Below are positions 18,551 to 47,988 of a DNA stretch of 64,000 nucleotides, in pieces. The DNA comes from an uncultured Lachnospiraceae bacterium (GTDB taxonomy: Bacteria > Bacillota > Clostridia > Lachnospirales > Lachnospiraceae). The DNA is taken from contig CAQWRG010000005.1 in assembly GCA_948909305.1 (NCBI GenBank), positions 4,716 to 68,715 on the forward strand. Reading direction: 5' to 3'. The notes under the pieces were generated by a model. The model did no database searches and was not told where the DNA came from. It saw nothing but the letters and a program-made list of their open reading frames with translations. The first letter of the stretch is position 1; each line of letters opens with the position of its first letter. Both the position numbers and the translations under genes were made by a program.

Positions 18551-19069
18551 TTGAAGCTTACGACGAGGGAAATTGCCGTTTTTGCAATGCTTGGCGCCGT
18601 GATGTATGTTTCAAAGATGATTATGGAACTTGCCCCAAATATTCATCTGCTTGGCGTTTTTACGGTTGCTTTTACAGTGGTGTACCGCAAAAAAGCGTTG
18701 TATCCGATCTATGCCTATGTATTGTTAAATGGATTATTTTGCGGGTTTGCCGGATGGTGGATTCCATATCTGTATGTATGGACGTTTCTTTGGGGCGTTG
18801 TCATGCTTTTGCCAAGACAGATTCCGAAACGGGTTCGGCCGTTTGCATATATGACGGTTTGCGCGATACATGGATTCTTGTTTGGAACGCTCTACGCTCC
18901 GGCGCATGCGGTTTTGTATGGGTTAAGCCTAAAGGGCATGATTGCATGGATTGTGGCGGGCCTGCCTTTTGATTTTATACATGGCGTAAGCAATTTTTTC
19001 TGTGGGATACTGGCTGTGCCGATTATATCTGTATTGCGCTATGCGGAAAGGAATGCAAATCAGGAATAA
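18551..19069 (+). CDS. ECF-transporter substrate-specific (S) component, CbrT-like (cobalamin)
   Basis: 172 aa with 5-6 TM helices, lying under a B12 riboswitch and next to DUF4430. No A/T components are in the operon, so the shared ECF module is presumably encoded elsewhere. Confidence 0.6.
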   Translation: MKLTTREIAVFAMLGAVMYVSKMIMELAPNIHLLGVFTVAFTVVYRKKALYPIYAYVLLNGLFCGFAGWWIPYLYVWTFLWGVVMLLPRQIPKRVRPFAYMTVCAIHGFLFGTLYAPAHAVLYGLSLKGMIAWIVAGLPFDFIHGVSNFFCGILAVPIISVLRYAERNANQE

Positions 19070-26718: not shown

Positions 26719-26743
26719 ATTAAAACAATGTGGGGGAAATGAA

Positions 26744-31905: not shown

Positions 31906-33144
31906 ATGGCAAAAAAATACACATGTCCCTATTGTTTTAAAGAGCATGAATTTGAAGATGTGGAATTTCGGTGTGTCAATGGGTTTTGCAGTGAGAAAAC
32001 GCAAGATGAAAAATACGCCCAGTATTTGGGGTTAAAGAAGGAATCAATGCCGCTGACAAACGCGACATTTTGCGCGAAAACGGTTTTGCCGAAATTGTTC
32101 CGCGGCCGTTATATGCCGATGTGGGAGAATTGCCCGTTTTGTGAAACAAAGACGTCAATCCGGGTTTGCCCGGACTGCCATAATGAGCTTCCGGAAGGAA
32201 TCCAAGATAATGAAGATATGATAATCGCGATTGTAGGGAGCCGTGATACGGGAAAAACGCATTTTATTTCTGTATTAATCAATGAACTGCAAAAGAGGAT
32301 ATGCCCTACGGTTTTCAATGGAATTTTTAATCCTATGAATGACGCGGTGCATAATCATTATATGGATCATTTTTACAACAGGGTTTATATACAAAAACAG
32401 TTACAGGATTTAACGGCGACAGCAAACCAGAGAGGGGAAATATCCGTAAGGAAGCCGTTAATTTATGAAATGATTATTCCGTTGGACGACAAAGGGAAGC
32501 GTGTCCGCAAGTTTACATTTGTATTTTACGATACCGCGGGTGAAGATTTAAAAAGTGAAGCGGTGATGAAGACGGTAAACCGTTATATCTGTAAAGCGGC
32601 GGGAATTATCTTTTTGCTTGACCCGCTTCAGATTATGGAGCTGCGGAACAATATGGATGAAGATGAAATCAAAACGTCTTCTTCTATTCTGGAAAATGAG
32701 ATTGTATCGCAAGAAATGGTTTTACAGAGAATTGCAAATGTAATCCGTGAGGATAAAGGAATGAAAAAATCGCAGAAAATCAATGTGCCTACAGCAATCG
32801 CGTTTTCGAAATTTGATGTGTTAAAACGTTTCTTCCCAAAAGGCAGCATAGTATTGGAGCCTTCGAGTTATCTGCGGGAAGGGCAGCTTGATAAAAGCGA
32901 ATGGTTTACTGTAAGCAATGAGATAGAAGCGATGCTCAATGAGTGGGGAGCGGGCGGATTTGCCACACAGGTAAAAATGACGTTTGACAGGTATACATAT
33001 AGCGCCGTATCGGCTTTGGGGCAGCGTCCGATATTGTCGAAATCGGGAGGGGCGAAAGAAATTGCAAGCCAGCCGATGCCGCATCGGGTAGAAGATCCGT
33101 TTTTATGGCTCTTAAAAGAAAACCGGGTTATCAAAGAAAAATAG
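31906..33144 (+). CDS. Double zinc-ribbon protein fused to a Ras-like small GTPase / P-loop domain
   Basis: Zinc ribbons CPYC...C..C and CPFC...CPDC. G1 IAIVGSRDTGKTHF, G3 FVFYDTAGED (DTAGQE-like), G4-like FSKFD. Confidence 0.55.
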   Translation: MAKKYTCPYCFKEHEFEDVEFRCVNGFCSEKTQDEKYAQYLGLKKESMPLTNATFCAKTVLPKLFRGRYMPMWENCPFCETKTSIRVCPDCHNELPEGIQDNEDMIIAIVGSRDTGKTHFISVLINELQKRICPTVFNGIFNPMNDAVHNHYMDHFYNRVYIQKQLQDLTATANQRGEISVRKPLIYEMIIPLDDKGKRVRKFTFVFYDTAGEDLKSEAVMKTVNRYICKAAGIIFLLDPLQIMELRNNMDEDEIKTSSSILENEIVSQEMVLQRIANVIREDKGMKKSQKINVPTAIAFSKFDVLKRFFPKGSIVLEPSSYLREGQLDKSEWFTVSNEIEAMLNEWGAGGFATQVKMTFDRYTYSAVSALGQRPILSKSGGAKEIASQPMPHRVEDPFLWLLKENRVIKEK

Positions 33145-33156: not shown

Positions 33157-35436
33157 ATGGGGATAAATCAGGCGCTTTTTACTTCTTCTGCCCGTGGAAT
33201 CAGTAAGGGCGGGGGATTGGGCTTACATAGTTATAACAGGACATGCAGTGACATGGAACTGAGGGAATTTGAGCAGGGGTTCTGCCACTATTCCTATCAG
33301 GGCGACAGCAGCGAAATACCGAATCTGCCCAAAAAAATGCTGTATAAGAAAATTGATGGAGATCGGTATCTATTGGCAAGCGTGACTTATTTGGGAAAGG
33401 ATTATCTCAAGGAGCAAGGGCGTATGGGAAACCTTCTTAGCCATATGTATTCTTTTGAGAGAAAAGACCTTACGAAATATCCGATGGAATTTTGCGCAAG
33501 CCCTGATTTCCGTTATGAAATGGAATCTGATGAAGTGGACGGCAGCAGGCGCGTAGAGTATCTTTCTGAAGTAAGCGGCGTTAGGACGGGGACGAAAGTC
33601 ATGCGTGAAACTGTACAGGCATTTTTAGAAGCAGAGCCTTGGAGAATTGATTTTTTCAGAAATCTTTTAGCGGCGGTTTTTCATAGGGATGCAGTCCATA
33701 AAGTAATCCTTTCCGACAGCCATGAACATATTTTGATGTGGCTTGCGGCGGTTGAATTTGCTCTGCCATTGCAGTGCGCAATAGAACTTTCTTTCTCCAG
33801 TTATGAAGAAAATCCAATGATTTCGGAGTTTGATATCCGCGGCATGGCATCTGGGCTTAGCGTGGGAAGTTGTGAAGAATACGCCGCAAGCGGGCAGTAT
33901 TATGTATTTGACGGGAATCATCAGGCTTATCCCAAATTTGATATAACGGAGGGTTATTTTCAGTATGGAATTTTATTTGGCATAGACAGTATTCAGGGGT
34001 TTTGTGATTTTATGAAATCATATGGATATTATAGCGTAGATATGGATATTTGCGCCGGATACAATCTCTACCAAATGGTACAGGGAGGAATGGATCTTCT
34101 GGGAGAAAAGGAGTTTCAGGATGCAGTTTCATTTGAAAGCAAGTATGGAGATCGCGCCACATACAGGCAGATTTTAGAAAACCAGTTTGAAAAAATAGAA
34201 GGAAATTACACACCAGATCTTTCAGTGTTAAAAAGCATTTATGTCTGGCTGATTGGGTATTTTCAGAAACCGCTTACGATAAAAGACTTGGAGTTTGCGG
34301 TCGCATACGCTGTTCGGCTGGAGCGGTATGGAAAGGACAATACTAAACTTGTAAATGCAAGAAAGCAGATGTGGGAATTTATCTATGAAACGATGGTGCA
34401 GAGCAAACAGAAAACGGCGCTTGCTTTTTTGCTTGAGAAGTTAAAAGAGGCGGGATTGTATGAACATATTGGAGAGTTTAGCCGTTATCTGATCCAGTTT
34501 GCAAACGAAGATACGGCTGCAAAAAGGCTTGGCCGTCTGTTCACTATGCTGTGGGAGGCTGTGCCGCAGACAGAATACCGGTATTTCGATGCGGTTGTTG
34601 AGACAGAAGCGGACCGGCTTGCCGCATATGATGGAAAAGAGCAGTACAGGGAAGCGCTGCTTGCTTTTTTGAAAGTTCAGGAACTGGGATATGGGCAGGT
34701 GCATGGGAAGGGAATGGAAAAGCTGATAGCCTTTCTATCGTGCGGAACAAATTTCGAAGATTTAAAACCCAGAAAACAGGGGCTGATTCATAGAAAAAAA
34801 GAAAACCGTGACGAGCTGGAACAGCTTCAGGCAAAAGCCGCATTTGAAGCGTTTAATTATGCGCAGAAGCATAACAAAAATATATCTATTGCAAACATCA
34901 GGCTTTTGCATTTAGGCAAGTGCATCCAAAATGCGTTTGAATTGGAAAAACCGCTGGAAAAGGTTAAAACGCTCCGGATTTATTCGGATTATCCGGTGGA
35001 TATGGAACGGATTTCGCATGATGAATTTGAGTTTTATTTGGATATTCTGTGTGAGACGATTTTTACAATGCAGTTAGATAAGTCGGATTATATGCAGCTT
35101 TTGACGTATTGGATTTTGGAAAAACGGCAGAAAAGCATATTAATGCAAAAATTTTTGTCCGGTGAAATGAACAGCGTAAAAAAGGATAGTGAAGCAGGCG
35201 GGCTTATAAGTCTTCTGTCAGCGCTTAAGAATCTGAATGATGAGGAATATACAGAAGCGTTTCAAAAGAATCTCTTTTTGCTTAAGGAATCACAGCGCGT
35301 TAGGGCGGCGGATTTAATGAAAAAAGAGTATGGAGCGGACAATGAAGGCTATCGGTTTTGGCGGCAGTTAATACGCGGAGAAAAACCGACTGAAAAAAGT
35401 CTGACAAAGAAATTTCCGAAATTTGGGAAAAGGTAA
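33157..35436 (+). CDS. Hypothetical 759-aa protein, predicted cytoplasmic and alpha-rich
   Basis: A 12-nt gap with an RBS couples it to the GTPase gene. No recognisable motif. Confidence 0.5.
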   Translation: MGINQALFTSSARGISKGGGLGLHSYNRTCSDMELREFEQGFCHYSYQGDSSEIPNLPKKMLYKKIDGDRYLLASVTYLGKDYLKEQGRMGNLLSHMYSFERKDLTKYPMEFCASPDFRYEMESDEVDGSRRVEYLSEVSGVRTGTKVMRETVQAFLEAEPWRIDFFRNLLAAVFHRDAVHKVILSDSHEHILMWLAAVEFALPLQCAIELSFSSYEENPMISEFDIRGMASGLSVGSCEEYAASGQYYVFDGNHQAYPKFDITEGYFQYGILFGIDSIQGFCDFMKSYGYYSVDMDICAGYNLYQMVQGGMDLLGEKEFQDAVSFESKYGDRATYRQILENQFEKIEGNYTPDLSVLKSIYVWLIGYFQKPLTIKDLEFAVAYAVRLERYGKDNTKLVNARKQMWEFIYETMVQSKQKTALAFLLEKLKEAGLYEHIGEFSRYLIQFANEDTAAKRLGRLFTMLWEAVPQTEYRYFDAVVETEADRLAAYDGKEQYREALLAFLKVQELGYGQVHGKGMEKLIAFLSCGTNFEDLKPRKQGLIHRKKENRDELEQLQAKAAFEAFNYAQKHNKNISIANIRLLHLGKCIQNAFELEKPLEKVKTLRIYSDYPVDMERISHDEFEFYLDILCETIFTMQLDKSDYMQLLTYWILEKRQKSILMQKFLSGEMNSVKKDSEAGGLISLLSALKNLNDEEYTEAFQKNLFLLKESQRVRAADLMKKEYGADNEGYRFWRQLIRGEKPTEKSLTKKFPKFGKR

Positions 35437-35451: not shown

Positions 35452-36495
35452 ATGGCGTTTAAAAGAGCGAATCGGGAGATTGTTCAAAACATAAAAAAGG
35501 GATATTACTACCGGAAAATGCCGCCTGCGCTTCAAAAAGGCTATGAAATTGCGGCAGAGGGGATTCTTTCTTTTCAGAAAAAAGTAAAGATAGCGGATTG
35601 CTCTGGCAAGGAAGAAATGGAGCGGATTATCCGCGCTGTCCTTATGGAACATCCTCAGTTTTTTTATTTGAATGCAAAAGATATTGGCGTTGTAAATGCG
35701 GGGGAGTCATTTTCGTTTTCCTTTCATTATTTGTATGACAAAAAAGAAGCCATTCAGCTATTGCAGCAGATAGACAATCGGGCAGACTATATTTTGTCAG
35801 AAATCATTACGGACGGCATGACGGATTATGATAAATGCGTGGCAATTCATGATTATGTTACAAATCATATCCGTTACAATTTTTCTGCGGCGGCAGTTTC
35901 CTATATTTACGATGCATTTACGATAGAAGGCCCTATCCTAAAAAATCAGGCGGTTTGCGAAGGGATTGCAAAGACCATCGCTTATTTACTGGACAAGCTT
36001 TCTGTCAATCATTTAATTGTGGCAGGTTTTAGTGACATTGATGGGGTTCATGCGCCGCACGCATGGAATATGGTGGAGTTAGAAGGAAGTTATTATCATA
36101 TCGATGCGACATGGGATTTACAGGAAATCAATCATTTTACGAACTGCTCTCATATGTATGTAAATTTAGACGATGACTCCATGCTTGAAAACCATGATTG
36201 GGAATTGGGGGACTATCCGTCTTGTGATAAACGGGCAGAGAACTATTATGTAAAAGAAGGGCGTTTTTTCCGGTCAATGCGAAGCTTTGAATTGTATGCG
36301 CAGAAATTTTTACAGGAGGGGCAGTCTTTTATGGACGCCAGGTTTGAAGATGTATTGGATTTGCCTGATGAGAATGGGAATTATTTGGCGGAAATAATTC
36401 AGAAAAGCGCTGTGTATGCCGGGAAAAGATGTCAGGTATCTTTTGTCTTCCATCCATGCAATTATGTGTTTCAGGCGAATGTGATGTATGGATAA
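35452..36495 (+). CDS. Transglutaminase-like superfamily cysteine protease/transglutaminase
   Basis: Cys-His-Asp core AVCEGIAKTIAYLL ... HAWNMVEL ... YHIDATWD. Confidence 0.75.
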   Translation: MAFKRANREIVQNIKKGYYYRKMPPALQKGYEIAAEGILSFQKKVKIADCSGKEEMERIIRAVLMEHPQFFYLNAKDIGVVNAGESFSFSFHYLYDKKEAIQLLQQIDNRADYILSEIITDGMTDYDKCVAIHDYVTNHIRYNFSAAAVSYIYDAFTIEGPILKNQAVCEGIAKTIAYLLDKLSVNHLIVAGFSDIDGVHAPHAWNMVELEGSYYHIDATWDLQEINHFTNCSHMYVNLDDDSMLENHDWELGDYPSCDKRAENYYVKEGRFFRSMRSFELYAQKFLQEGQSFMDARFEDVLDLPDENGNYLAEIIQKSAVYAGKRCQVSFVFHPCNYVFQANVMYG

Positions 36496-36519: not shown

Positions 36520-37296
36520 ATGAAATTTTCAAATTATAGAAAACAAGATGTATATAAGATGCTGTTAAAGGCGGCAGTGGCATTCGTGATTCTGATTGTG
36601 GCTTTGTTTACAGTTTACAGGATTGCAAAGCCAAAAGTGGATATGTGGCTTTTAGAGAGGAAAGAGGCTAAAGAAAAAAGAGAAGCGGAAGAAAAAAAGG
36701 AAGCGGAAGAAAAAGCGGAAAGGGAATCCGAAGAACAAAGAATGCAGGAACTTGCGGAAGAATCGGATCGGATAAGCGACGGGCAGGAACAGAAAGATTC
36801 TGAATATGAGGAAGAATCAGAAACGGAAGAACCGGAAACGGAAGAATCGTCTATTCATCGGTATGAGTATGTAGTGGAAGATTGTACATGGCAGGAAGCG
36901 TTTGAAACATGCAAGTCAAAAGGGGGCTGTCTTGTCAATATCGACGACGAAGCGGAGTTTGCCTATATTACAGCGGAAATTGAAAAAAACGGTATGAAAG
37001 AGATCTTGTTTTATTTGGGAGCATCACAGGATTCGGAACAAAATTACCGTTGGCGGTCGGCAGAAGGCGCGTTTAGCGGGGGTATCCTAAATGGAGTGGG
37101 ACATTCTTGGCACAGCAGATATTGGATGCAGGGAGAACCCAGTTATTATGACGGAGAAATAGAAGAAAATGTACTGGCTATGCAGTTTTTTGAAAAAGAA
37201 GCGAGATGGGTATTCAATGATGTGCCGGGGGATATTGTGGGAAATTTTTCATATCTCAGTGGAAAAATAGGCTATATCTGTGAATACAGTGAGTAG
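36520..37296 (+). CDS. Type-II membrane protein with an extracellular C-type-lectin-like domain (CTLD), paralog 1
   Basis: Conserved N-terminus MKFSNYRKQD..KMLL, one TM, a Glu/Lys-rich stalk, then the CTLD (CTWQEAFETCKSKGGCLVNID...WRSAEG...WMQGEPS...WVFNDVPGD...YICEY). Confidence 0.7.
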   Translation: MKFSNYRKQDVYKMLLKAAVAFVILIVALFTVYRIAKPKVDMWLLERKEAKEKREAEEKKEAEEKAERESEEQRMQELAEESDRISDGQEQKDSEYEEESETEEPETEESSIHRYEYVVEDCTWQEAFETCKSKGGCLVNIDDEAEFAYITAEIEKNGMKEILFYLGASQDSEQNYRWRSAEGAFSGGILNGVGHSWHSRYWMQGEPSYYDGEIEENVLAMQFFEKEARWVFNDVPGDIVGNFSYLSGKIGYICEYSE

Positions 37297-37326
37297 GCAG
37301 GGAAATTTATCGGGAGAAGATAAGGT

Positions 37327-38589
37327 ATGAAATTAAAAAAGGCGCTGGCAGTTAGTTTGTGTATGTTGTTTTGCGTTTTGCTGGGATATGTGTTTGGAGA
37401 ATGGAAAGCGGGAAAAGAAAGTGTGGCGCGTCCTAAAAAAAAGTCCATAGAACAAACGGCATCGGAGGAAAAAGAGAAAGAGCCGCTGTCTGTAACGGAA
37501 AGTGTGGAATCGCTTCCGAAAGAAGACGCAAAGGAAACATGGATTCGTGAAAAGCTGTCTGAGATGACAGAGGAACAGAAGGCGGCTCAGTTATTTGTGA
37601 TTTTGCCGGAAGCGTTGACCGGGGTAAGACAGGTAATCCGGGCTGGAGAAACTTCAAGGCAAAGTCTGTTATCGTATCCGGTCGGAGGCTTGATTTATAT
37701 GTCCGGAAGCCTGAAAAGTCCGGAGCAGACAAAAGAAATGCTTGGAAATATGATGGAGTTTAGCCAAAATGATACGGGCATACCGCTGTTTTTATGCGTT
37801 GATGAGGAAGGCGGTAAGGTGGCGCGGGTGGCGTCGAATCCGGCATTTGGCGTACAGAATGTTGGGAATATGAGGGAAATTGGAGATTCTGGCGACATTA
37901 GAAGGGCTTATGCGGCAGGAAAGGAAATGGGGGCGTATTTAAAAGACCTTGGCTTTAATGTGGATTTTGCGCCTGTAGCGGATGTTTTGACAAATCCACA
38001 GAACGAGCTATTGCAAAACAGAAGTTTTGGGTCAGATGCTGAATTGGTGCGGGGCATGGTAGAACAGGCGGCAAAGGGAATTGAGGAATCTGGCGTATTT
38101 TCCTGCGTCAAGCATTTTCCGGGTCATGGGAATACAAATGAAGATTCGCATAATGGCTATGCGACGACGCAAAAGACTTTAGAGGAAATGCGTCAGACTG
38201 AATTTATCCCGTTTCAAGATCAGATTGAAAAAGGGATTTCGTTTGTTATGGCAGGGCATATTTCCGCGCCGAATGTGATGGGAGATCAGACGCCTTCATC
38301 TTTATCCGGCATTATGCTGACAGATATTTTACGCAATGAGCTAAAGTTTGACGGAATTATTATTACTGATGCATTAAATATGGGAGCGGTTACAAGCCAT
38401 TATTCTTCTGGGGAAGCTGCGGTTATGGCTTTTTTGGCCGGGGCGGATATGCTTTTGATGCCTCAGGATTTTCATAGCGCATACAATGCAATTTTAGAAG
38501 AAATTCATCAGGGCAGGATTACAAAAGAACGTTTGGATGCATCGGTTGGGAGGATATTAAGTGTGAAGTATCAGTTACTACAAAAATAA
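37327..38589 (+). CDS. Glycoside hydrolase family 3 beta-N-acetylhexosaminidase (NagZ-like), membrane-anchored
   Basis: N-terminal TM anchor. GH3 signature KHFPGHGNT..DSH and GIIITDALNMGA. Confidence 0.8.
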   Translation: MKLKKALAVSLCMLFCVLLGYVFGEWKAGKESVARPKKKSIEQTASEEKEKEPLSVTESVESLPKEDAKETWIREKLSEMTEEQKAAQLFVILPEALTGVRQVIRAGETSRQSLLSYPVGGLIYMSGSLKSPEQTKEMLGNMMEFSQNDTGIPLFLCVDEEGGKVARVASNPAFGVQNVGNMREIGDSGDIRRAYAAGKEMGAYLKDLGFNVDFAPVADVLTNPQNELLQNRSFGSDAELVRGMVEQAAKGIEESGVFSCVKHFPGHGNTNEDSHNGYATTQKTLEEMRQTEFIPFQDQIEKGISFVMAGHISAPNVMGDQTPSSLSGIMLTDILRNELKFDGIIITDALNMGAVTSHYSSGEAAVMAFLAGADMLLMPQDFHSAYNAILEEIHQGRITKERLDASVGRILSVKYQLLQK

Positions 38590-38603
38590 ACGGTGGAGAA
38601 AAA

Positions 38604-38873
38604 ATGACGATTTCAAATTTTAGGGGAAAAGATAAAAAAAGGATGCTGCTGATTGCCGGGAGTTTAGCGGGAATTGGATTGATTCTGGCATTGGCGGCAA
38701 TCATCGCAGGAGTACGGTTTTTGGGGCCGGTTGTGTTGGATACAGTGGACTGGATTGTTCAGAATGAAAATGAAGTGAAGGGCTGCCTATTGGTTTTCGT
38801 TGGTATCCCTTGCTTTATAATTATAATGTTTCGGAAAAGAAAACGTGAAAAAGAAAGGAAAAAACAAAAGTAA
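38604..38873 (+). CDS. Anchor-only paralog of the CTLD membrane-protein family (89 aa: N-terminal motif plus TM, no lectin domain)
   Basis: MTISNFRGKDKKRMLL plus a TM helix, then a short basic tail. It looks like a truncated copy immediately upstream of a full-length paralog. Confidence 0.4.
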   Translation: MTISNFRGKDKKRMLLIAGSLAGIGLILALAAIIAGVRFLGPVVLDTVDWIVQNENEVKGCLLVFVGIPCFIIIMFRKRKREKERKKQK

Positions 38874-38922
38874 AAAATATGGAACGTTGTATATTGTTTG
38901 GAAAAAATGGTGGAAAAGAAAA

Positions 38923-39975
38923 ATGAAGTTTTCAAATTTTAGAGGAAAAGATGCAAAGAAAATATTTCTTGTAATGGCGGCAATTTCTTTTGCAGTTGCC
39001 ATTGTGGCGATAATTGCAATTAGTCAGGCAGTCCGGTTTTTTAGGCCGAAAGTGGAAGAAGTGTTTTCGGAGTTTAAAGAAACAAGGGAAAAAGAGAGAT
39101 TGGAACGGATAGAAAAGGAAGCATGGGAAAAGGAAATGGATATACCGTATTCCGCATTAGAATATAATGGACACTATTACTATGTATATGACGATGCCGA
39201 GTCGTGGGAAGATGCAGAATGGAAATGTGAGCAGCTTGGAGGGCATCTGGCAACGATGACGACGTCTTCTGAAGATAAAGCGGTTTATAAGTATGTGTCT
39301 TCTAAAGAGTATGAATATGTTTTTTTCGGATTGTATATGGATATGGAGCAAATTAGTTGGAATTGGATTATCACAGAAGGGACGGAGTATGCGAACTGGA
39401 CAGAAGGGGAGCCGGATCTTGGAAGTGACAAAGATTGTATGTATGGGTCATATTACCGTTATGATCAGTCGAAATGGAGGGCCATTTCTACTAATGACAC
39501 TTCATCTTATGTATGTGAATGGGATTCAAAAGAGCAGGGCAGGAAAAACAGAGAAAGAATTGAAGCAGATAATGAAGAAACAGGCTATTTAAATCCGATT
39601 GATCCGGTTCTTACATATAAATCGCGTCGTTATATGATTTTAGAAGGTGAAGCAACATGGGAAGAAGCAAATGAAAGATGCGAAAGTCTGGGTGGGCATC
39701 TTGCTGTGATAAATAACAAAAAAGAAAATAAAGCTCTATATAAATATATGATAGAACGAGGCTACGAGAGTGTGAATTTTGGATATACGGACCAAAAAGA
39801 AGAAGGAAAATGGGTTTGGGCAGAAGGCTATGAATCTGATTATACAAATTGGGGAAAGAATCAGCCGGATAATTTTCAGGGAGATGAAGATTATGCAGCC
39901 TTTTATGCAGATGCAAAATATAAGTGGAATGACAGCATATGGAGCGGCGTTTATTTTTGTGAGTGGGAAAAATAA
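38923..39975 (+). CDS. Type-II membrane protein with two tandem CTLDs, paralog 2
   Basis: Start was re-chosen at MKFSNFRGKDAKKIFL (38923). Two CTLD repeats: WEDAEWKCEQLGGHLAT...EPD...YVCEWD and WEEANERCESLGGHLAV...KWNDSIWSGVYFCEWE. Confidence 0.7.
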   Translation: MKFSNFRGKDAKKIFLVMAAISFAVAIVAIIAISQAVRFFRPKVEEVFSEFKETREKERLERIEKEAWEKEMDIPYSALEYNGHYYYVYDDAESWEDAEWKCEQLGGHLATMTTSSEDKAVYKYVSSKEYEYVFFGLYMDMEQISWNWIITEGTEYANWTEGEPDLGSDKDCMYGSYYRYDQSKWRAISTNDTSSYVCEWDSKEQGRKNRERIEADNEETGYLNPIDPVLTYKSRRYMILEGEATWEEANERCESLGGHLAVINNKKENKALYKYMIERGYESVNFGYTDQKEEGKWVWAEGYESDYTNWGKNQPDNFQGDEDYAAFYADAKYKWNDSIWSGVYFCEWEK

Positions 39976-40004
39976 GCAGGCTTGAAAGAAAGGGGAGAGA
40001 TCAA

Positions 40005-40595
40005 ATGTCAGATACATATGGCGTGTTTTTGGCAAGAATGCAGCCTGTCCATAATGCGCATCTGTTCTTAGTGGAGAAAGCGTTAGAGGAAAATGACAAA
40101 GTATTTATTATGCTTGGCAGTGAGAACAAACTGGACATGCTTAGAAATCCGTTTGACATCTCATTGCGGGAAAGGATGCTGCGAGAGTGTTTTGATGAAA
40201 AACAGAATAGAAGAATAAAGGTAGATACATTGCCGGATTGGTCTATGGAATCCGATTTAGAAGGCGCAAAAATCTGGGGACGATATTTTTATTATAATGT
40301 CGTGTCCAGAATCGGGCAGAAAAGATTTTCGCTGTACTATTCAGATAATCCGCAGATATTAGACAGTTGGTTTTTGGATACGGAGGTCTATTCCTTTATT
40401 AGATACCGGAATTTCGAACGAAACTGTATTTTTGAAGGCCTGTCTTCGACAAAAATCCGGAAAGCGTTTATGGAACGGGATTTGGCGTATATTATCCGCT
40501 ACTGTCCACAATCGGTTGTAAACAGGTTTGAATATTTGTCTTCTTATTATAAAGAGGTGACGGAAGATCCAAAAGAGGATTTTTCTATGGAATAA
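40005..40595 (+). CDS. NadM-type nicotinamide-nucleotide adenylyltransferase-like nucleotidyltransferase (HxGH superfamily)
   Basis: YGVFLARMQPVHNAHLFLVEKALEENDKVFIMLGSENK matches the G.F.GRFQPFH.GHL motif of archaeal/bacterial NMNAT. Start was re-chosen at 40005 (RBS AAAGGGGAGAG). Confidence 0.55.
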   Translation: MSDTYGVFLARMQPVHNAHLFLVEKALEENDKVFIMLGSENKLDMLRNPFDISLRERMLRECFDEKQNRRIKVDTLPDWSMESDLEGAKIWGRYFYYNVVSRIGQKRFSLYYSDNPQILDSWFLDTEVYSFIRYRNFERNCIFEGLSSTKIRKAFMERDLAYIIRYCPQSVVNRFEYLSSYYKEVTEDPKEDFSME

Positions 40596-40663
40596 AAGAG
40601 AAAATTTTTTATTTGCCAATGACAGAAATGATAGGAATGACAGAAAATAGATGAGGTGAAAGT

Positions 40664-41074
40664 ATGAGCGCAAAGAAAAAAGCAATTATTGCAATTATAG
40701 TTGGGGCAGTTATTGGAGCAGTTATTGGAATTTATATGATGACTTATGTAAGGCAATATGGGGAGATGATCGGAGAATCACAAACCGGGCTTACAGTACA
40801 GAGCTTTTTGATGGTTCCATGTTGTATGTTATATGCGTTTGGTTACGCATTTGGCTGGAAAAGATGCAAAGGATTTTTAGCCGGCGCTGCAAAAGTCAGC
40901 GCGGATATTAGCTTTTTCTATCTTATCGTGCATTTGATAACGGGAAAGGGAATTGGGAAAGGGCTTTTTATCGCAATGTTTGTATTTAGTTTTGCGGTTG
41001 GAGTGGTTTGGGTTCCGGGAGTTGTCTATGGGATAAAAGATTTGATGCGCGAACGCCAAGAGGCTTGCGCGTAA
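40664..41074 (+). CDS. Hypothetical integral membrane protein (4 TM)
   Basis: The sequence is mostly hydrophobic. No recognisable domain. Confidence 0.45.
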   Translation: MSAKKKAIIAIIVGAVIGAVIGIYMMTYVRQYGEMIGESQTGLTVQSFLMVPCCMLYAFGYAFGWKRCKGFLAGAAKVSADISFFYLIVHLITGKGIGKGLFIAMFVFSFAVGVVWVPGVVYGIKDLMRERQEACA

Positions 41075-41136
41075 GGAAAAGCGGCGTTGTTTTCTGTCAT
41101 TGGTGAATAAAAGAATTTTGAAAAGGCGAAACTGGC

Positions 41137-42030
41137 ATGGGAGATCGGTTATATAGGGGGAGGAAACTTTTAAACAGTGGCAAGATCCTTCAGAATAGAT
41201 ATTGTATAAAAAAAATGATTGGGCAGGGCGGTTTTGGGATTTCTTATCTTTCGGTAGATTTTGCGCAGGATAAGGATGTCGTGATTAAGGAGTATTTTCC
41301 ATATGGAAAAGCATACCGCGGTGAAACGTCTCAGGTTTTTTTCAAAAATAACAGCGGCAAATATGACATGTTTATCCATGAAGCATCTATTCTGGAAAAA
41401 TTAAAAAATATTGAGGGGATTGTTAAAATCCAGGACTTTTTTTTGGAAAATAATACGGCTTATATCGTTATGGGGCGCTGTAAGGGCATGACGTTACGCG
41501 AGATGGTTCAGAAAAATGGAAGAATGGAAGCGAAAGAATCTTATGTACTGATGGAATCCCTTCAAAAAAGTTTGGAGCAGATACATAGACATGGAATTAT
41601 CCATAGGGACATTTGTCCTGACAATATTATTGTTACAGAAGCAAAAGAAGTGGGACTGATTGATTTTGGATCTGCATTGGATTTAAACAGCCGAAAACAG
41701 CAGCTTGAAGAACCAACTTACCGAACCGGCTTTAGCCCGCCGGAACAATATGAAAAGGGAGGCATGTATGGCGTATGGACGGATATCTATGCCTTTTATG
41801 CGACATGGTATTTTTGTCTGGCAAACGCTGCGCCTCCGGGGGCGGAGGAGCGGTTGGATTGTGACGTGTTTTCCTGCCGCCTGCGTACAGAATTGGAGGA
41901 AAAAAGCGGCTTGATGGAATTACTGGAGAGAGGAATGGCTCTGGATTATAAAAAGAGAAACATTTGGAAAGGGGGTGAATGTTATGGCAATGACAAAAGA
42001 AGAAAAATTTGCTTTACAGAGTATGCTTGA
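41137..42030 (+). CDS. Hanks-type Ser/Thr protein kinase, kinase domain only
   Basis: Kinase domain: Gly-rich loop GQGGFGISY, the VIKE Lys, HRHGIIHRDICPDNII (HRD) and DFGSA (DFG). No PASTA or TM. The 3' end overlaps the RiPP precursor gene by 47 nt. Confidence 0.8.
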   Translation: MGDRLYRGRKLLNSGKILQNRYCIKKMIGQGGFGISYLSVDFAQDKDVVIKEYFPYGKAYRGETSQVFFKNNSGKYDMFIHEASILEKLKNIEGIVKIQDFFLENNTAYIVMGRCKGMTLREMVQKNGRMEAKESYVLMESLQKSLEQIHRHGIIHRDICPDNIIVTEAKEVGLIDFGSALDLNSRKQQLEEPTYRTGFSPPEQYEKGGMYGVWTDIYAFYATWYFCLANAAPPGAEERLDCDVFSCRLRTELEEKSGLMELLERGMALDYKKRNIWKGGECYGNDKRRKICFTEYA

Positions 42031-42157
42031 CGTCTGTGAAAAGAAATTCGGTGAACTTTCAATCGAAAACATCGTAATTTCCAGCGCTTGCGATTCCTGT
42101 TCCGGAAGCTGCAAAGGACATGGGATTTCTGTGTGGACAGCCTGTGATGTGAGGTAA
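41984..42157 (+). CDS. Cys-rich RiPP precursor peptide (58 aa) for the adjacent radical-SAM/SPASM enzyme
   Basis: ATG at 41984 behind AAAGGGGG. Leader-like MAMTKEEKFALQSMLDVCEKKFGELSIENIVI, then core SSACDSCSGSCKGHGISVWTACDVR. It is immediately followed by the rSAM gene. Confidence 0.55.
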   Translation: MAMTKEEKFALQSMLDVCEKKFGELSIENIVISSACDSCSGSCKGHGISVWTACDVR

Positions 42158-42238
42158 GAGGAAACGGCATTACAGAAAAATGCAGGAAAAGAGAAGTCTT
42201 TTCCTGCATATTTGCAAAGAAACGGGGGCGATAGAGGT

Positions 42239-43327
42239 ATGTTAAAAGAAGTCATGCTGATCTTGACAGAAGGCTGCAATCTGTCATGTTCTTATTGTTT
42301 TGAACATTATAAATCGGATAAGAGAATGAAATTTGAGACGGCAAAAAAGATTATCGATGCGGAAATGTCAATGGAAGACGGCGCGGACGAATGCAGGTTT
42401 ACATTGTTTGGCGGCGAGCCATTTTTAGAAAAGCAGATAATTAAAGAGATTTATGGCTATATTGAGTCGAATATGCCAAAGTGGCGAAAAAAGGCAGTTA
42501 TTTTTGTGAATACAAATGGAACATTGCTTGACGCGGAAATGAAGCAGTGGCTTAGAGAGCGGAAGGAACACATCTACTGTGGAATCAGCCTAGATGGGAC
42601 AAGAGAAATGCACAATCAGAACCGTTCGGATTCTTTTGACCGCATTGATTTGGATTTTTTTAGGGAATGCTGGCCAGGACAGAATGTGAAGATGACTGTG
42701 TCAAAAGAGACGCTTCCCAGTCTGGCAGAAGGCGTTATCTTTATCCATGAAAAAGGGTTTCCATGTGGGTGTACGTTTGCATATGGTCTGGAATGGAGCG
42801 ATGATTTAATACACGGGCTAAAAGGACAGCTTGATAAATTAGTGGCGTATTATACTGAAAATCCAAACCTTCCTTTATGCCAGATATTAAATATTGATTT
42901 GACTGGAATCCTGAAAAAACCAGACGCCGGGTTTAAGCGATGTGGGGCTGGAGAGTTGATGAAAGCGTATGACACGGAAGGAAAGTTATATCCCTGCCAT
43001 TCCTTTAGCCCGGTCGGGCTGGGAGAGGAAGCGGGGAAATTTGTGGATTATAAATTGCCTGCAGCGGATATTCACGAAGAAAAACGCTGCGTGGAATGTA
43101 AGTATCATTTTGTCTGCCCGACTTGTTACGGGGTGAATTATATTTATACAGGCTCTGTTTCGAACAGAAGCAAGTGGCTGTGTGAATTTTTCAAATTATG
43201 TGTACAAGCGTCGGCGGTGATTCAATTACGAAGGCTTGAGACAAAGGGGGCAGAGAGATTAGACCAACATGATTATGGGACGCTTCTGGCGATACAGTCT
43301 TGTATTCAGGGGGAAAGCATTTCATAA
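42239..43327 (+). CDS. Radical SAM peptide maturase with a SPASM domain (sactipeptide/ranthipeptide-type)
   Basis: CxxxCxxC as TEGCNLSCSYC. C-terminal auxiliary-cluster cysteines CGAGE...C.......CVECKYHFVCPTCYG. Start was re-chosen at 42239. Confidence 0.7.
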   Translation: MLKEVMLILTEGCNLSCSYCFEHYKSDKRMKFETAKKIIDAEMSMEDGADECRFTLFGGEPFLEKQIIKEIYGYIESNMPKWRKKAVIFVNTNGTLLDAEMKQWLRERKEHIYCGISLDGTREMHNQNRSDSFDRIDLDFFRECWPGQNVKMTVSKETLPSLAEGVIFIHEKGFPCGCTFAYGLEWSDDLIHGLKGQLDKLVAYYTENPNLPLCQILNIDLTGILKKPDAGFKRCGAGELMKAYDTEGKLYPCHSFSPVGLGEEAGKFVDYKLPAADIHEEKRCVECKYHFVCPTCYGVNYIYTGSVSNRSKWLCEFFKLCVQASAVIQLRRLETKGAERLDQHDYGTLLAIQSCIQGESIS

Positions 43328-43344
43328 AATAGGGGGAGAAACAC

Positions 43345-44744
43345 ATGAATCTCATTTATTCCAGACAGGAAATGGAGAAAATCTGTAGGATAATTCTTAA
43401 CTACTGCGAAAAAATACTCAGGGACAACTACGGGGAGGTTTATAAGTGGAGTTTTGGGGAAGAAGTTCCTGTGAAAGTTATAGAGGGCGCGTTGTATAAA
43501 ATCGGAAATGTAAAATATAAATATCCATCTCTAAAAAAAGAAGATATTTTTATTATTGTATCTTCAAGTAACGGCAAAGAAGGAATGGTATTTGGCTTTG
43601 ATGGTATCTATTATAAAGCGGGCGCCTTCCATGAAGCGCAATTTGAGAAGTATGAGGATTGCATCAGTGTAGATTCGTTTACAGATCTGGGCACAGACGC
43701 TAATTATATTTTTAATACGGGCGCAGTTAATGAAATGTTTGCGCAGATACAAAGCGCGCTTCATGGAGATATTCCTGTTAAAGTGAAGAATTATAGCCAG
43801 ACAAAGAGCGATTATGGAAAACATATTGAGAATCCTAAGATTCAGGAAGCGTTTTTGCGTTTTTTAGAAAAAGAGGAGAAAAAGTCAAATGAAGCGGCGC
43901 GGCATTATTGGGAAGAAGCATTTCAACTGACGGATACGGATAAAAAAATAAAGCTTTTATTACTGGGAGTAAAGGAAGGGGATGCTTTAAGTTCGCAGGA
44001 ATTGGGCGAGATGTATATAAAAGGGGAAGAAGTTCCAAAGGACTTAAAAAAGCGGAAGAATATCTCCGGTTTCCTGCAGAATGCGGCTATTCAGAATCCA
44101 TGTATTTTTTTGGCCTGATTTGTATGCAGAAAGGCGATAAAGAAGATTGTTTGGACTGGCTGTGCAAAGCTGCCGTTAAAGGAGATGGAAATGCCTTTAT
44201 GACGCTTGCCAAATATGCGGCAGAGGATACGGATAAAGATTTGATAGAAGCGCGTTTATCAGTATATTTCCGGGAAGTATGCGAGAACGAACAGAATGAT
44301 TATAAAACCAACCGTTTCCTTGGCTGGTGCTATATGACGGGTATTTGCTGCGCGCAAAATTTTGGGCTGGCAAAAATGTATTGGAAAGCCGGAGCGGATC
44401 AGGATGACGTCCGGTGTAAGGTTTATTTGGATATTTGTGGGTTAAACAGAAATGGGGAAGCGTTACAGGCGAAAACTGCGGAAACGGCATCTTCTGATTT
44501 AGAGAGTGCAGAGGAGAATGTTCAGGGCTTTGGGCAGGAAAGAGAAGCAGAGGAGAATAGAGTAAATGGAAAAGCAGTGGCGGCGGTAGTTTTAGGCGTG
44601 TTGTCTTTTCGGGGAGTTTTATGGATGGCTGTTCTTGGATTGATTCTGGGCGTGAGAGCCAGAAAGGAGCAGGGAGGGGCTTTGGCGCTTGTGGGTATTA
44701 TATTGAATACAGCAGTTCTAATGCTTTTTATATTCGCTCTTTAA
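43345..44744 (+). pseudogene. Sel1/TPR-repeat membrane-anchored protein interrupted by a -1 frameshift at a T7 tract (44105-44111)
   Basis: ORFs 43345..44118 and 44100..44744 overlap at a run of seven T. Inserting one T fuses them in frame (..NPCIFFGLICMQKGDKE..). Sel1 repeats span the junction, and a C-terminal TM pair follows. Confidence 0.6.
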
Positions 44745-44774
44745 GCGGCTGGCGCTTGGAATAAAGTAAGGAGA

Positions 44775-45821
44775 ATGAGGTTGAAGTTATCAAATTACAG
44801 AAAACAGGATATGAAAAAAATGCTGCTTGCGATGGCGGTATTTGCCGCAGTGGCGGCGGCAGTGATTGCGGCGGGGGTCCGCTATGGGATAAAAAAATTG
44901 AAACCGAAAGTGGAAACTGCATTAGCGGAATCAAAAGAGCAAAAAGCAGAGCAGAAGCGCATGGAAGAAGCAAAACAGCAATCGGAGGCAGAACAGCAGA
45001 GCCAAAAGGAAGATGAGTGGGAAACTAAACAGGAAAACAAACAGAATGAAACGGAAAGCCTCCATATACCTACGGATTGTTTCGAATATAAGGGGCACAG
45101 CTATTATTATTTTGAACAGGCTGGCGGCATTACATGGGAGGAGGCGAAAGAAAAATGTGAAGAAAGAGGAGGGCATTTGCTTACCATTGCCTCCAAAAAA
45201 GAACAGAAAGCAGTCTATGGATATATCAATCAATATGTGGGATTTGACTGTGATCTTTGGATAGGCATTCGGGAGCCATGGGAAACATGGGTGACGGGAG
45301 AGCCTGTTTCTTATACGAATTGGGGAGAAGGGGAGCCTGATGGAAGTTATGGACAGTGCTACGGGGCAATCTGTAATGGAGAAAGGAGCGGGTATGGTTA
45401 TCGGATTGATGAAGGGCAGTGGGACGACCTTGGGAATGATGATGAAACAGTAAGCAGGGGCGGATATATCTGTGAATGGGATACGACAGTGGAAGGAAGC
45501 CAGCCTGTGAAAGTGACGAAAGAAACAAAACGGCAGGAAAAAGAGAAAGATTATATAATTCCGGACAGTGGCGCACGGTATCTGGACAGATCGGATATAG
45601 AGGGGTTAGGAAAAGAGGAGCTTCGTTTGGCTAGGAATGAAGTCTATGCGAGGTATGGGCGGTTGTTTGATGATGAAGCGCTGCAAAATTATTTTGATGA
45701 AAAAGATTGGTATCATGGTTCTATTAAGCCGGAAGATTTTAAAGACAGCTTGTTAAATGAATATGAGAAGCAGAATTTGTATCTGATTCTCGATTATGAG
45801 GAAGAAATGGGTTATCGGTAG
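44775..45821 (+). CDS. Type-II membrane protein with a CTLD and a C-terminal YARHG domain, paralog 3
   Basis: MRLKLSNYRKQDMKKMLL plus TM, a Q/E/K-rich stalk, the CTLD (WEEAKEKCEERGGHLLT...EPD...YICEWD) and a YARHG motif NEVYARYGRLFDD. Confidence 0.7.
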   Translation: MRLKLSNYRKQDMKKMLLAMAVFAAVAAAVIAAGVRYGIKKLKPKVETALAESKEQKAEQKRMEEAKQQSEAEQQSQKEDEWETKQENKQNETESLHIPTDCFEYKGHSYYYFEQAGGITWEEAKEKCEERGGHLLTIASKKEQKAVYGYINQYVGFDCDLWIGIREPWETWVTGEPVSYTNWGEGEPDGSYGQCYGAICNGERSGYGYRIDEGQWDDLGNDDETVSRGGYICEWDTTVEGSQPVKVTKETKRQEKEKDYIIPDSGARYLDRSDIEGLGKEELRLARNEVYARYGRLFDDEALQNYFDEKDWYHGSIKPEDFKDSLLNEYEKQNLYLILDYEEEMGYR

Positions 45822-45837
45822 AAAGGGGAAAGTGATT

Positions 45838-47988
45838 ATGAAAAAAAGGATATTATTTGTTGCGTTGCTTGCGGTTCTTATGTTTTTTTCTGGGACAGAG
45901 ATGGTGAATGCAGAGGAGACTGTCAGGGAAGAAACTGTGGAAATGGCGAAAGGAAACGGCGTATTTGGTTTTTGGCAATATAAAGAAGGAGATTATTCCA
46001 ATATTGTTATAACAAAATATACAGGAGTAGAAGAAAATGTAGTGATTCCAAGCATGATAGCCGGAAAAAAAGTAACGGCGATTGGTAATTGGGCTTTTGA
46101 ATATAATGATTGGGTGATATCTGTTAATATACCGGATACGGTTACAAGTATCGGTTACGGTAGTTTTCAGAGCTGCGGAAATCTGACAGCTATTTATGGA
46201 ATGAAAAATGTAGTGTCTATAAGTAGGTACGCTTTTTCTAATTGTGGAAATTTGCGAAGCGTTTCTCTTGGAACTGCGCTTACGTCAATAGGATATTATG
46301 CTTTTCAAAATTGTGTAAAGTTAAACGGCTGTGTTTTTCCGTCAACGCTTACATATTTAGGCATAGGTAGCTTTGAAAATACAGGATTAACAAGCGTCAA
46401 TGTTGCGGCATCTGTTGAAATGGACAGAAGTGCTTTTAATAATTGTCAAAATTTAGTAAGTGCATCTGTTCATACGTCTATATCCGGATATGCTTTTGCA
46501 GGTAATAAGAATCTAACGACGGTTTCCATTGGGGCAAATGCCAATATTGGTTATAACGCATTTGAGCAGTGTTCTTCATTAAAAAATGTTTCGATTGCAA
46601 ATGGCAATACCGGAATTTCAATTGGCACGGAAGCATTTAGCGGCTGTTCTAGTTTGGTAAAAGTTACACTTCCATCAAGCGTAAGGTATTTGGAAGAGTC
46701 TTCATTTGCAGGATGTACGTCTTTAAAGCAGATAGGTTTATCAAATCGTTTGTTAAAGATTGGAAGAACCGCTTTTTCTGGATGCAGTTCTCTTATAAGC
46801 GTTGCAGTTCCAAATACGGTTACACAAATTGAATATGCGGCGTTCAATAGTTGCAATGCCCTAAGCAGCATTTTGATTCCGAACAGCGTAATAAATATGC
46901 AGGATCATTATTATCAAATATGCAGTAATGAAGTGACGATAAAATGTTATGCCGGATCAGAAGCCGAAAAATATGCGTCAGCGAAAGGGAATCCCATTGT
47001 TTTATTAAAAGCAGTTCCAAGTTCCAGCATTAAATTTTCTGCGGGAACGATTTATATGAATGTAGATGATACGCGGCTGCTGACTTATGCCATTACGCCG
47101 GCGAATACAACCGACGCAGTTATATAGGAAAGTTCCAATACTGGCATTGCGGAGGTGAACAGCATTGGGGAGGTAACGGCAAAAGGAGTGGGAAGTGTTA
47201 CCATTATTGCGAAGACGACAAGCGGCAGGCGAGCTACAGTTAATATCGCAGTGTCACATAAGCCAAAAGAGATTTCATTTTTAAAATCAAGCGTTACAAT
47301 TATGGCAGGGGAATCTATGACGCAAAAAGCGGTAGTCAAAGACGATGCGGGGGTACGCAATGATATAAAACCGTCATACAGCAGTTCCAATCCCAAAGCA
47401 GCGTCTGTATCCGCATCGGGCGCAGTGTTAGGAATTGCGCCGGGAGTGGCGGTAATTACTGCAAAAACTGGAAAATTATCCGCTTCTTATAAAGTGACCG
47501 TTGTATCCAACCAGCCAAAATCAATTACATTTTCAAAAAAGAAAAAAACGCTGGTAGCCGGGCATACCTTGACGCAGAAAGCTTCCGTTATGGGTTCCCT
47601 TGGAAAAATTACAAGCTTAAAGCCAATTTACAGCAGTTCTAACCCTAAAGTGGCGTCCGTATCCCCTTCCGGGCAGATAAAAGGATTAAAGGAAGGCTCT
47701 GTGACAATTAAAGCTGTAATTGGGAAACTAAAAGCGACCTATCAAGTGCAGGTGGTAATGGCAAAAATTTCAAAAAAGGGAAAAACGTTAAAAATAACAA
47801 CAGTTCCAAACGCAAGAGTTAAAGTCAGGGCAAAGAAATCGTTCCTTGGGAAATCTTCTAAAACTGTAAAAGCAGACAAAAAAGGAAATGCAAAAATTAA
47901 GTTTAGAAAGAAGCTAAAAGGCATTACGGTCAAAGCGCAGATTAAAAAATCGGGATATAAAAAGAAAACAATAAAAAAGAAATTTTAA
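45838..47988 (+). pseudogene. Secreted BspA-type leucine-rich-repeat plus Big_2 surface protein with an in-frame TAG (47125-47127) inside a Big_2 domain
   Basis: Signal peptide MKKRILFVALLAVLMFFSG. About 14 LRRs follow (..IGNWAF..NCxNL..). ORFs 45796..47127 and 47155..47988 are in the same frame, separated only by a TAG that splits a Big_2 domain (YAITPANTTDAVI*ESSNTGIAEVNSIGEVTAKGVGSVTIIAK). Confidence 0.6.

Follow-up and report, generated by a model that had tools for sequence, protein, structure and literature searches.

What is a short N-terminal peptide doing when it is shared by neighboring genes for otherwise different putative surface proteins? This question is raised by a 64,000-nucleotide (nt) stretch of DNA from an uncultured mouse-gut Lachnospiraceae bacterium (GenBank assembly GCA_948909305.1, contig CAQWRG010000005.1, positions 4,716 to 68,715), hereafter the window, in whose coordinates all positions are given unless another locus is named. 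A first-pass annotation of the window had picked out four genes beginning with nearly the same motif and had taken them, together with a nearby glycoside hydrolase family 3 (GH3) hexosaminidase and a stand-alone Hanks kinase, for a glycan-sensing or adhesion module. Judging by their sequence and gene order, the four genes, which we call tagA to tagD, are the variable membrane arm of a GAP1-N2-type DO-GTPase/Hsp70 conflict system. We lean, somewhat beyond even chances, toward the view that the shared peptide, which we call the tag, serves for docking or recognition specific to this system and links changeable ectodomains to a cytoplasmic core. The four genes encode proteins of up to 350 amino acids (aa) with a tag, one or two transmembrane (TM) segments, and, in three cases, C-type lectin-like domains (CTLDs):

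36520-37296, + strand: tagA, 258 aa; tag at aa 1-16 (36520-36567), TM segment at about aa 17-36, acidic helical stalk to about aa 110, and a single CTLD at about aa 111-258 with the motif EPS...E...ND
38604-38873, + strand: tagB, 89 aa; a hairpin stub made of the tag, TM1, a loop of about 22 aa, TM2, and a basic tail
38923-39975, + strand: tagC, 350 aa; tag, TM segment, helical stalk, CTLD1 (about aa 76-201, EPD), linker, and CTLD2 (about aa 228-350, QPD...WND)
44781-45821, + strand: tagD, 346 aa; tag, TM segment, E/K/Q-rich stalk, a CTLD (EPD...WDD), and a YARHG domain at about 45546-45800

In these four co-directional genes, the tag reads M-K-[FL]-S-x-[YF]-R-x-x-D-x-K-K-M-x-L, with a TM helix directly after it. 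The four copies align without gaps, M1, S4, N5, R7, D10, and L16 being invariant, and each is followed by the hydrophobic segment and a P-x-V motif. A hidden Markov model (HMM) of the first 18 residues, searched against the six-frame open reading frames (ORFs) of the window, found only these four N-termini (E values of 1e-9 to 1.5e-7) and reported no other window ORF up to E = 10. The match is therefore not due to chance, and the four genes of the first-pass annotation, all ORFs on the + strand, are real. The fourth had been given a start at 44775. This ATG lies 1 nt from the ribosome-binding site AAGGAG (44768-44773), whereas the TTG at 44781 lies at a normal spacing of 7 nt and yields the N-terminus MKLSNYRKQD, which falls into register with tagA to tagC. 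Because of this spacing and register, the true start of tagD is almost certainly the TTG at 44781 rather than the annotated ATG; GTG or TTG starts were present in 7 of 24 homologues.

The tag is conserved well past the four paralogues and so passes the test by which the first-pass annotation would have been refuted, a motif limited to these copies. We compared 24 tagged genes at eight loci: M1, S4, R7, and D10 never vary and K2, [YF]6, K13, M14, and L16 hardly do, giving the consensus M-K-h-S-x-[YF]-R-x-x-D-x-[KR]-K-M across lineages. The invariant residues use varied synonymous codons, five for Arg7 (AGA, AGG, CGG, CGT, and CGC, from both codon families) and three for Ser4, which argues that selection acts on the tag peptide and not on its DNA or RNA. 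In paralogue pairs from the same locus (n = 30), identity was 58% in the tag, 24% in the TM segment, and 31% in the remainder. The ectodomains that the tag heads consist of a CTLD, two CTLDs, a CTLD with YARHG, YARHG alone, a CTLD with NPCBM, or two related unknown domains, and there are two hairpin stubs besides.

We then asked how far the tag extends beyond these loci. When 1.84 billion representative proteins were scanned exhaustively by HMMER with a 55-position N-terminal profile, the tag was found in 15 clusters only, and all tagged clusters with a recoverable context were placed in the same type of locus, one with GAP1-N2 and transglutaminase (TGase)-like genes. The exhaustive scan was needed, as a word-index search with the N-terminal profile alone returned tagB and one fragment. 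No Pfam or NCBIfam model covered the tag in scans of tagA to tagD. By these searches, the tag is restricted to one locus type within a narrow Lachnospiraceae clade, and the first description of an "expanding family" was too broad. In the window, the conserved part of this locus comprises the following genes:

24970-28840, + strand: two Hsp70-family genes (HSP70 matches with E values of 2e-96 and 3e-99)
26744-28840, + strand: Hsp70-vWA, the second of these two, with a vWA domain whose MIDAS motif DLSGS (DxSxS) is intact
28859-31876, + strand: 1005-aa fibronectin type III (FN3)-like protein with zinc ribbon (Zn-ribbon) motifs, in the position of the FNIII-repeat component
31906-33144, + strand: DO-GTPase-like protein with two N-terminal Zn-ribbons (CxxC...CxxC), the P-loop GSRDTGKT, and DTAGE
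33157-35436, + strand: GAP1 protein (GAP1-N2 PF20013, 40.2 bits; GAP1-M PF20014, 27.3 bits)
35452-36495, + strand: TGase-like thiol enzyme with no predicted TM segment, always immediately upstream of the first tagged gene
50630-54875, + strand: u337, u193, and a CHAT peptidase, lying past a block of inserted variable genes in the window, in an order that differs from other lineages

Both GAP1 domains exceed the Pfam cutoff of 24 bits, as they also do in loci L001, L005, and L018, and the GTPase stays below its cutoff of 27 bits (DO-GTPase2, 21.8 bits; DO-GTPase1, 17.5 bits). The 1005-aa protein of the window has no Pfam match; its orthologues give faint Fn3_SaeA and weak DZR matches, and its N-terminus looks J-domain-like by eye only. 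In the TGase-like protein, Cys169, His203, and Asp218 are invariant, and its solved relatives amount to a single uncharacterized entry, 9crn. No TM segments were predicted in the Hsp70s, the FN3-like protein, the GTPase, GAP1, the TGase-like protein, CHAT, u337, or u193. On these predictions, the tagged proteins are the membrane-spanning arm of a system whose conserved core has no TM segment.

Loci were gathered from contigs encoding relatives of tagC and tagA and by a genome scan with the TGase-like protein. Seven to eight Lachnospiraceae lineages carry the locus, with one to five tagged genes each: that of the window (metagenome-assembled genome [MAG] MGBC163558, with L009 as a 100% match), L001-4, L010 (MGBC128780), L005-8, L011 (MGBC000145, deposited as an isolate), L012/L021/L022 (MGBC104031), L017-19 (GCA_964548675.1), and L020. 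In all of them, the TGase-like gene is followed within 20-340 nt on the same strand by a tagA orthologue, which lies directly 3' of it in every lineage examined. Further tagged genes are present at all loci but L011, and L018 has five, interleaved with GH3 and GH25 genes. Upstream, all contigs of sufficient length have GAP1-N2, the GTPase, the FN3-like protein, and Hsp70-vWA; Hsp70 genes are conserved in L010, L012, L021, and L022, and CHAT, u337, and u193 follow directly after the lectin genes in L005, L011, L012, and L021. A metagenome scan with the GTPase alignment gave two loci, both of the L012 type. The distant TGase-like homologues at L013-L016 (23-35% identity) are accompanied by neither tags nor GAP1 and are thus uninformative on the system.

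Identity to the window proteins was 77-88% for the GTPase, 70-76% for Hsp70-vWA, 50-67% for the TGase-like protein, 53-66% for the FN3-like protein, 41-57% for GAP1, and 34-59% for the tagged proteins, the lowest values of all, so that the surface arm is the fastest-evolving part. Within that arm, the tagC orthologues P0004-P0009 are 36-56% identical to tagC and keep the tag in every case, and the tagD orthologue at L010:14768 is 59% identical. The constant partners of the tagged genes, all predicted to be cytoplasmic, are the reason for which we regard the tagged genes as an arm of a GAP1-N2-type system and not as a free-standing module.

GAP1-N2 GTPase-centric systems with an Hsp70 theme have been described purely by comparative genomics; they are predicted to lie close to the membrane and to include variable TM components whose ligand-binding domains face the outside (Kaur et al., eLife 2020, PMC7159879). 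Like the published theme, which is also found in Firmicutes, the locus has GAP1 with its N2 and M domains and a pair of Hsp70-family genes. The GTPase in front of GAP1, with its two Zn-ribbons, is DO-GTPase-like, and the large protein with Zn-ribbon motifs is FN3-like. It differs in that one window Hsp70 is fused to vWA. Furthermore, the published theme has an FNIII-repeat protein fused to DnaJ or TPR and a GrpE with the Hsp70, whereas the FNIII assignment is only faintly supported here and no GrpE gene was recognized in the window. The main text of Kaur et al. mentions a lectin only for the FGS domain and a transglutaminase only for the VMAP systems, and the CTLD/YARHG/NPCBM arms, the constant TGase-like gene, the CHAT/u337/u193 trio, and a short shared N-terminal tag are not described there (PMC7159879). 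One of its supplementary files has no Lectin_C, Transglut, or Lachnospiraceae entries. Our search found no later literature on GAP1-N2 systems.

The ectodomains that the tag carries were then compared with known lectins. Pfam Lectin_C (PF00059; curated threshold, 22.6 bits) matched the proteins of tagC (86.2 bits, E = 3e-24, two domains), tagD (42.2 bits, E = 1.5e-10), and tagA (25.5 bits, E = 2.3e-5, partial), all above threshold, and tagD also matched YARHG (E = 2e-25). Family profiles found the solved animal CTLDs of the PDB with E values of 1e-23 for tagC and 7e-11 for tagA. The AlphaFold2 (AF2) models had a mean pLDDT of 82 for tagA and 87 for tagC, exceeding 90 across most of the domains. 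They place a single continuous helix through the TM segment into the stalk (residues 6-86 in tagA and 8-71 in tagC), after which come one CTLD in tagA and two in tagC. With Foldseek against the PDB, tagA retrieved mannose-receptor CRD4, DCIR, Dectin-2, langerin, and CD23 (target TM-score up to 0.78, with 0.76-0.78 for CRD4, DCIR, and langerin); the single tagC domains retrieved collectin-11, SRCL, and CD23 (0.73-0.85), and the tandem pair retrieved pairs of the mannose-receptor family. According to these models, the tagA and tagC ectodomains have the true CTLD fold. The three copies with a stalk and CTLDs, one of them with YARHG, are thus as first described, the fold being borne out for tagA and tagC, and in these two the order of N-tail, TM segment, long helical stalk, and CTLD is type II-like.

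The sugar-site motifs held up in part. By sequence reading, the predicted site of the second tagC domain is complete (QPD..E..WND). The first domain has EPD without WND, tagD has EPD..WDD, and tagA has EPS..E..FND and ends in CEY rather than the CEW first noted, EPS..E..ND being invariant in the tagA subfamily. The motifs of the tagC orthologues switch among QPD/WND (P0004 and P0005), EPN/WND (P0007), and QPD/WTT (P0006), which suggests that specificity shifts between lineages. PF00059 CTLDs with Gal-type or Man-type site variation are thereby added to the surface repertoire of gut Firmicutes.

A Kyte-Doolittle scan placed the TM segment at aa 14-34 and a second one in tagB only. The N-terminal flank of the segment carries a charge of +4 to +5 and the C-terminal flank -1 to +4, and related Firmicutes proteins have one TM segment with the CTLD on its C-terminal side and a Hanks kinase, TIR, sigma-70, or Zn-ribbon module on its N-side. 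Because of the higher N-flank charge and the cytoplasmic type of these N-side modules, the N-in/C-out orientation, as originally proposed, is favored. With its second TM segment, tagB is predicted to form a hairpin whose two termini face one side of the membrane. It has no match in Pfam and ends in the basic tail KRKREKERKKQK; an 88-aa gene at L001:19745 is built alike, and the tagB sequence is unchanged or almost so on hundreds of public contigs.

The ectodomain is not peculiar to the tagged proteins. The tagA-type CTLD occurs more widely, elsewhere behind a Zn-ribbon and a TM segment, and is 32-44% identical to such Zn-ribbon-TM-CTLD proteins, for example in Faecalicatena acetigenes. These and other Firmicutes CTLD proteins (P0141-P0150, P0079, P0099, and P0117) share the ectodomain subfamily and the predicted N-in/C-out layout but have a folded cytoplasmic domain, where the tagged proteins have a 16-residue tag and a gene in the GTPase locus. 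Across Firmicutes, CTLDs seem to serve generally as a module for extracellular sensing, including in a likely conflict protein with TIR (P0099, P0079/P0092/P0120, and P0117).

How the tag could serve as a docking peptide may be pictured as follows. The CTLD and YARHG modules would be displayed outside the cell on the helical stalk as glycan or cell wall binders, leaving only the 13-16 cytoplasmic tag residues of the arm within reach of the core. Because the conserved core proteins have no predicted TM segments, this tail would be all that is available to them, and the strict synteny suggests that the tagged proteins work with the core. The tag would then let a single cytoplasmic component engage a changeable set of ectodomains, and the outcome could be either the receipt of an outside signal, such as a glycan, wall damage, or phage contact, or the control or processing of surface proteins. 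Candidate partners are the always-adjacent TGase-like enzyme and the vWA domain of Hsp70-vWA, whose intact MIDAS could ligate the invariant Asp10 of the tag. We infer, rather than observe, the binding of the tag to a core component, the identity of that partner, and the direction of signaling. Wall glycans are the substrates of GH3 and GH25 enzymes, and NPCBM is a carbohydrate-binding module. For YARHG, peptidoglycan binding has been hypothesized (PMC3355149).

Several points weigh against a docking role. The tag is short and basic and could be a mere positive-inside topology determinant or a sorting signal, and with Y/F alternating at position 6 and variation at positions 8-9, it leaves few residues for specific recognition. 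Moreover, the sample consists of seven to eight related lineages of one family, and shared ancestry inflates the co-occurrence. To our knowledge, no GAP1-N2 system has an experimentally known function. In addition, the tag HMM found no copy of the tag on core proteins among the six-frame ORFs of the window and the related loci, so that the homotypic logic of the effector-associated domains (EADs) is inapplicable. The EADs and the GAAD adaptor resemble the tag in that one shared small module marks the interchangeable components of a single system, but EADs are globular, helical, and homotypic, with a copy on the core protein, whereas the tag is a 16-residue peptide beside a TM segment (PMC7159879).

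If the tag docks to vWA, the TGase-like enzyme, or GAP1, this would reveal the wiring between a cytoplasmic NTPase switch and the cell surface and the way in which bacteria swap extracellular specificities on a common signaling stub, as animal C-type lectin receptors do. The Lachnospiraceae locus offers a concrete, testable handle on GAP1-N2 GTPase systems, which have so far been a matter of comparative genomics only, and experiments should be possible since MGBC000145 (isolate B94_19_ER_BP, locus L011) is deposited as an isolate and not as a MAG.

A more far-reaching version of the docking idea, which we put forward only tentatively, is that the locus is a bacterial counterpart of lectin-receptor immunity, in which exchangeable glycan or peptidoglycan readers share a 16-residue cytoplasmic motif and signal from outside in to a GTPase/Hsp70-vWA switch. 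The readers would be CTLDs with Gal-type or Man-type sites, YARHG, and NPCBM; phage contact, wall damage, or neighbor cells would act through the switch on thiol-peptidase or caspase-like (CHAT) outputs. If true, a GAP1-N2 system would for the first time have been given an arm for outside-in sensing. The tagged proteins resemble animal type II C-type lectin receptors (CD23, DC-SIGN, langerin, and Dectin-2) in having a short N-tail predicted to be cytoplasmic, a single TM segment, a helical neck, and a C-terminal CTLD, and the homology extends to the CTLD sequence and fold, with QPD/WND in tagC CTLD2 and EPN/WND among its orthologues. However, of the cysteine pairs the bacterial domains conserve C1-C4 alone, the bacterial tail has no ITAM, hemITAM, or internalization motif, and its partners are the GTPase/Hsp70 set. 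The likeness is thus one of domain order and CTLD homology, not of cytoplasmic motif or partners.

The first of the rival explanations, which we consider unlikely though worth weighing, holds that the tag is the n-region motif of a specialized secretion or sorting signal of the YSIRK/GS or KxYKxGKxW kind, perhaps cleaved, with no contact with the GTPase machinery. Like those signals, it is a short, conserved, basic motif at the extreme N-terminus, directly before a hydrophobic segment and common to several surface proteins, and its [YF]-S-x-x-R-K flavor recalls YSIRK. By sequence reading, there are also possible small-residue cleavage sites in tagB, tagC, and tagD (SQA|V and AAG|V). Nevertheless, no YSIRK or KxYKxGKxW match was obtained in an NCBIfam scan of tagA to tagD (E <= 0.01), no cleavage motif is conserved across the paralogues or present in tagA, and a KPK[VI] motif is conserved after the TM segment. 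In the AF2 models of tagA and tagC, the hydrophobic segment of 21-23 aa runs straight into the long stalk helix, as would an uncleaved anchor, and a sorting signal would make no sense for the hairpin stubs. The ordinary secreted proteins of the locus, GH3 and a leucine-rich repeat (LRR) protein, have plain MKK-type signals, and a motif confined to 15 clusters and one locus type is not widespread on surface proteins, whereas the known signals are genome-wide.

An improbable alternative is that the tag is a substrate, the activated TGase-like enzyme or CHAT cleaving or cross-linking the tail so that the lectins are released, degraded, or clustered. The lectins would then be the regulated output, for example in wall remodeling with GH3/GH25 or in aggregation. 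In every case the immediate neighbor of the first tagged gene is the TGase-like gene, whose product has an intact catalytic triad, CHAT lies directly after the lectin genes in four lineages, and in L018 the genes of two wall hydrolases, GH3 and GH25, lie among the tagged ones; peptidase-released effectors have also been proposed by Kaur et al. (PMC7159879). On the other side, only 13-16 residues are processable, and a protein held by its TM segment would stay in the membrane after losing them. Classical Gln-Lys cross-linking is disfavored by the lack of conservation of Gln9 and Lys8. Processing of this kind would in any case be a subcase of recognition by a core component and not a true alternative to docking.

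The signaling route of the first-pass annotation, in which a glycan-sensing or adhesion module acts through the stand-alone Hanks kinase together with the GH3 hexosaminidase, now has little probability, gene order having largely refuted it. Both neighbors lie where they had been placed:

37327-38589, + strand: GH3, NagZ-like, with the N-terminal domain only and an ordinary signal/anchor sequence without a tag
41137-42030: stand-alone Hanks kinase

Kinase-TM-CTLD fusions exist in other Firmicutes (P0079, P0092, and P0120), the invariant Ser4 of the tag could be a phosphorylation site, and GH3 is found in four lineages (the window's, L001/L010, L018, and L020). However, the Hanks kinase, radical-SAM, u257, and Sel1 genes were found only in the window's species (for the kinase, in assemblies including L023) and at none of the six other loci with sequence beyond the tagged genes (L001, L005, L010-L012, and L018). 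GH3, for its part, is missing from L005, L011, and L012. What stays constant is instead the predicted cytoplasmic GTPase/Hsp70 set. Last, it is most improbable that the shared N-terminus is a functionless leftover of recent tandem duplication, since the clustering of the paralogues and the narrow clade would suit this origin but the tag DNA of the four copies is just 68-78% identical, Arg7 has five codons, and the tag is conserved two to three times better than the TM segment and ectodomain and is kept on non-homologous ectodomains across lineages whose TGase-like proteins are 50-67% identical; on the strength of this DNA divergence and the varied synonymous codons, recent duplication and gene conversion were rejected.

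Several further candidates were rejected. A diversity-generating retroelement was not supported: template/variable repeats were lacking, as was any long direct repeat in 30000-52000, none of 38 scanned window ORFs (about 19-64 kb plus two upstream genes) encoded a reverse transcriptase, and the lectin domain is PF00059, not the FGE-sulfatase type. Matches to pilin or pseudopilin leaders were subthreshold and driven by the TM helix, with no G|F-x-x-x-E motif. A likeness to the YxxxD/E signal of type VII secretion systems was set aside, as the tag has Phe at position 6 in half of the cases, is N-terminal, and abuts the TM segment, and the linked FtsK/DUF87 ATPase has no predicted TM segment. Among known anti-phage defenses (PADLOC 2.0), CHAT weakly matched BovA (E = 5.6e-7), and the other nine proteins had no match. 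A plasmid or phage origin was rejected because there were no close matches and the gene resembling a type IV coupling protein (T4CP) lacks a TM segment and is replaced elsewhere by the FtsK/DUF87 ATPase. Promoter and terminator scans gave counts at chance level, and an Rfam search of the tagged-gene region found nothing.

Other genes around the tagged ones deserve a brief description. In the window, the lectin block is followed at 48232-50628 by a TY-Chap1 gene resembling a type III secretion system chaperone, a T4CP/TraG-like ATPase without a TM segment, and a ClpP gene; chaperone-like and T4CP-like genes are also present in L010, up to the end of its sequence. In other lineages (L005, 4346-7507; L018, 2367-5534), the place between GAP1 and the TGase-like gene is taken by the gene for an FtsK/DUF87 ATPase of about 1055 aa, in which no TM segment is predicted. 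The T4CP-like "conjugation" gene may therefore be part of the system and not the sign of a mobile element.

The unannotated genes u337 (50630-51643) and u193 (51644-52225) are conserved beside CHAT in L005, L011, and L012, and u337 also in L021, at the contig end. u193 has an HxxxCxxC motif (HMADCDRC) like that of zinc-binding anti-sigma factors and u337 a weak sigma-70 match (E = 1e-3); because of these two features, the system may have a transcriptional output. Directly after CHAT, at 54887-57280, lies a gene for a 797-aa protein with a major-vault-protein shoulder domain (E = 5e-21), with no counterpart seen at the other examined loci.

In most public assemblies of the window's species, tagD is broken off after about codon 198 (about window position 45377, between the EPD and WDD motifs). 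The interrupted form encodes a 200-aa product ending in ...AICNR, with unrelated sequence beyond (L009, 19925-19974; L023, 6598-6719). It accounts for 607 index blocks and all of the 24 contigs inspected, and the window carries the intact 346-aa allele. The contigs with the interrupted form stop about 45-120 nt past the break, as expected for a repeated mobile element.

A BspA-type LRR gene (45796-47127), whose ORF begins within the end of tagD, and a Big_2 gene (47155-47988) lie back to back and may be a single surface-protein gene split by a frameshift; LRR_5 proteins are also found after the system in L001, L005, and L010. The gap between Big_2 and TY-Chap1 (48022-48148) holds five tandem A/G-rich units of about 22-23 nt each (AAAGACAGCGAAAGAAAAG...). 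A cobalamin riboswitch (17486-17676, + strand, 97 bits) upstream of the genes at 18105-19069 is unrelated to the tagged genes.

Finally, a conserved inverted repeat with the core TTGCCAAYGRCAG brackets a small multi-TM gene, TM136, in three lineages:

window: arms at 40601-40628 and 41091-41118 around the gene at 40664-41074
L001: arms at 11054-11072 and 11573-11591
L010: arms at about 14210 and at 14720-14732

All mismatches between the arms are G.U wobbles on the mRNA strand, and by its sequence the repeat looks like a long-range RNA stem for ORF processing or isolation, not a DNA inversion site.

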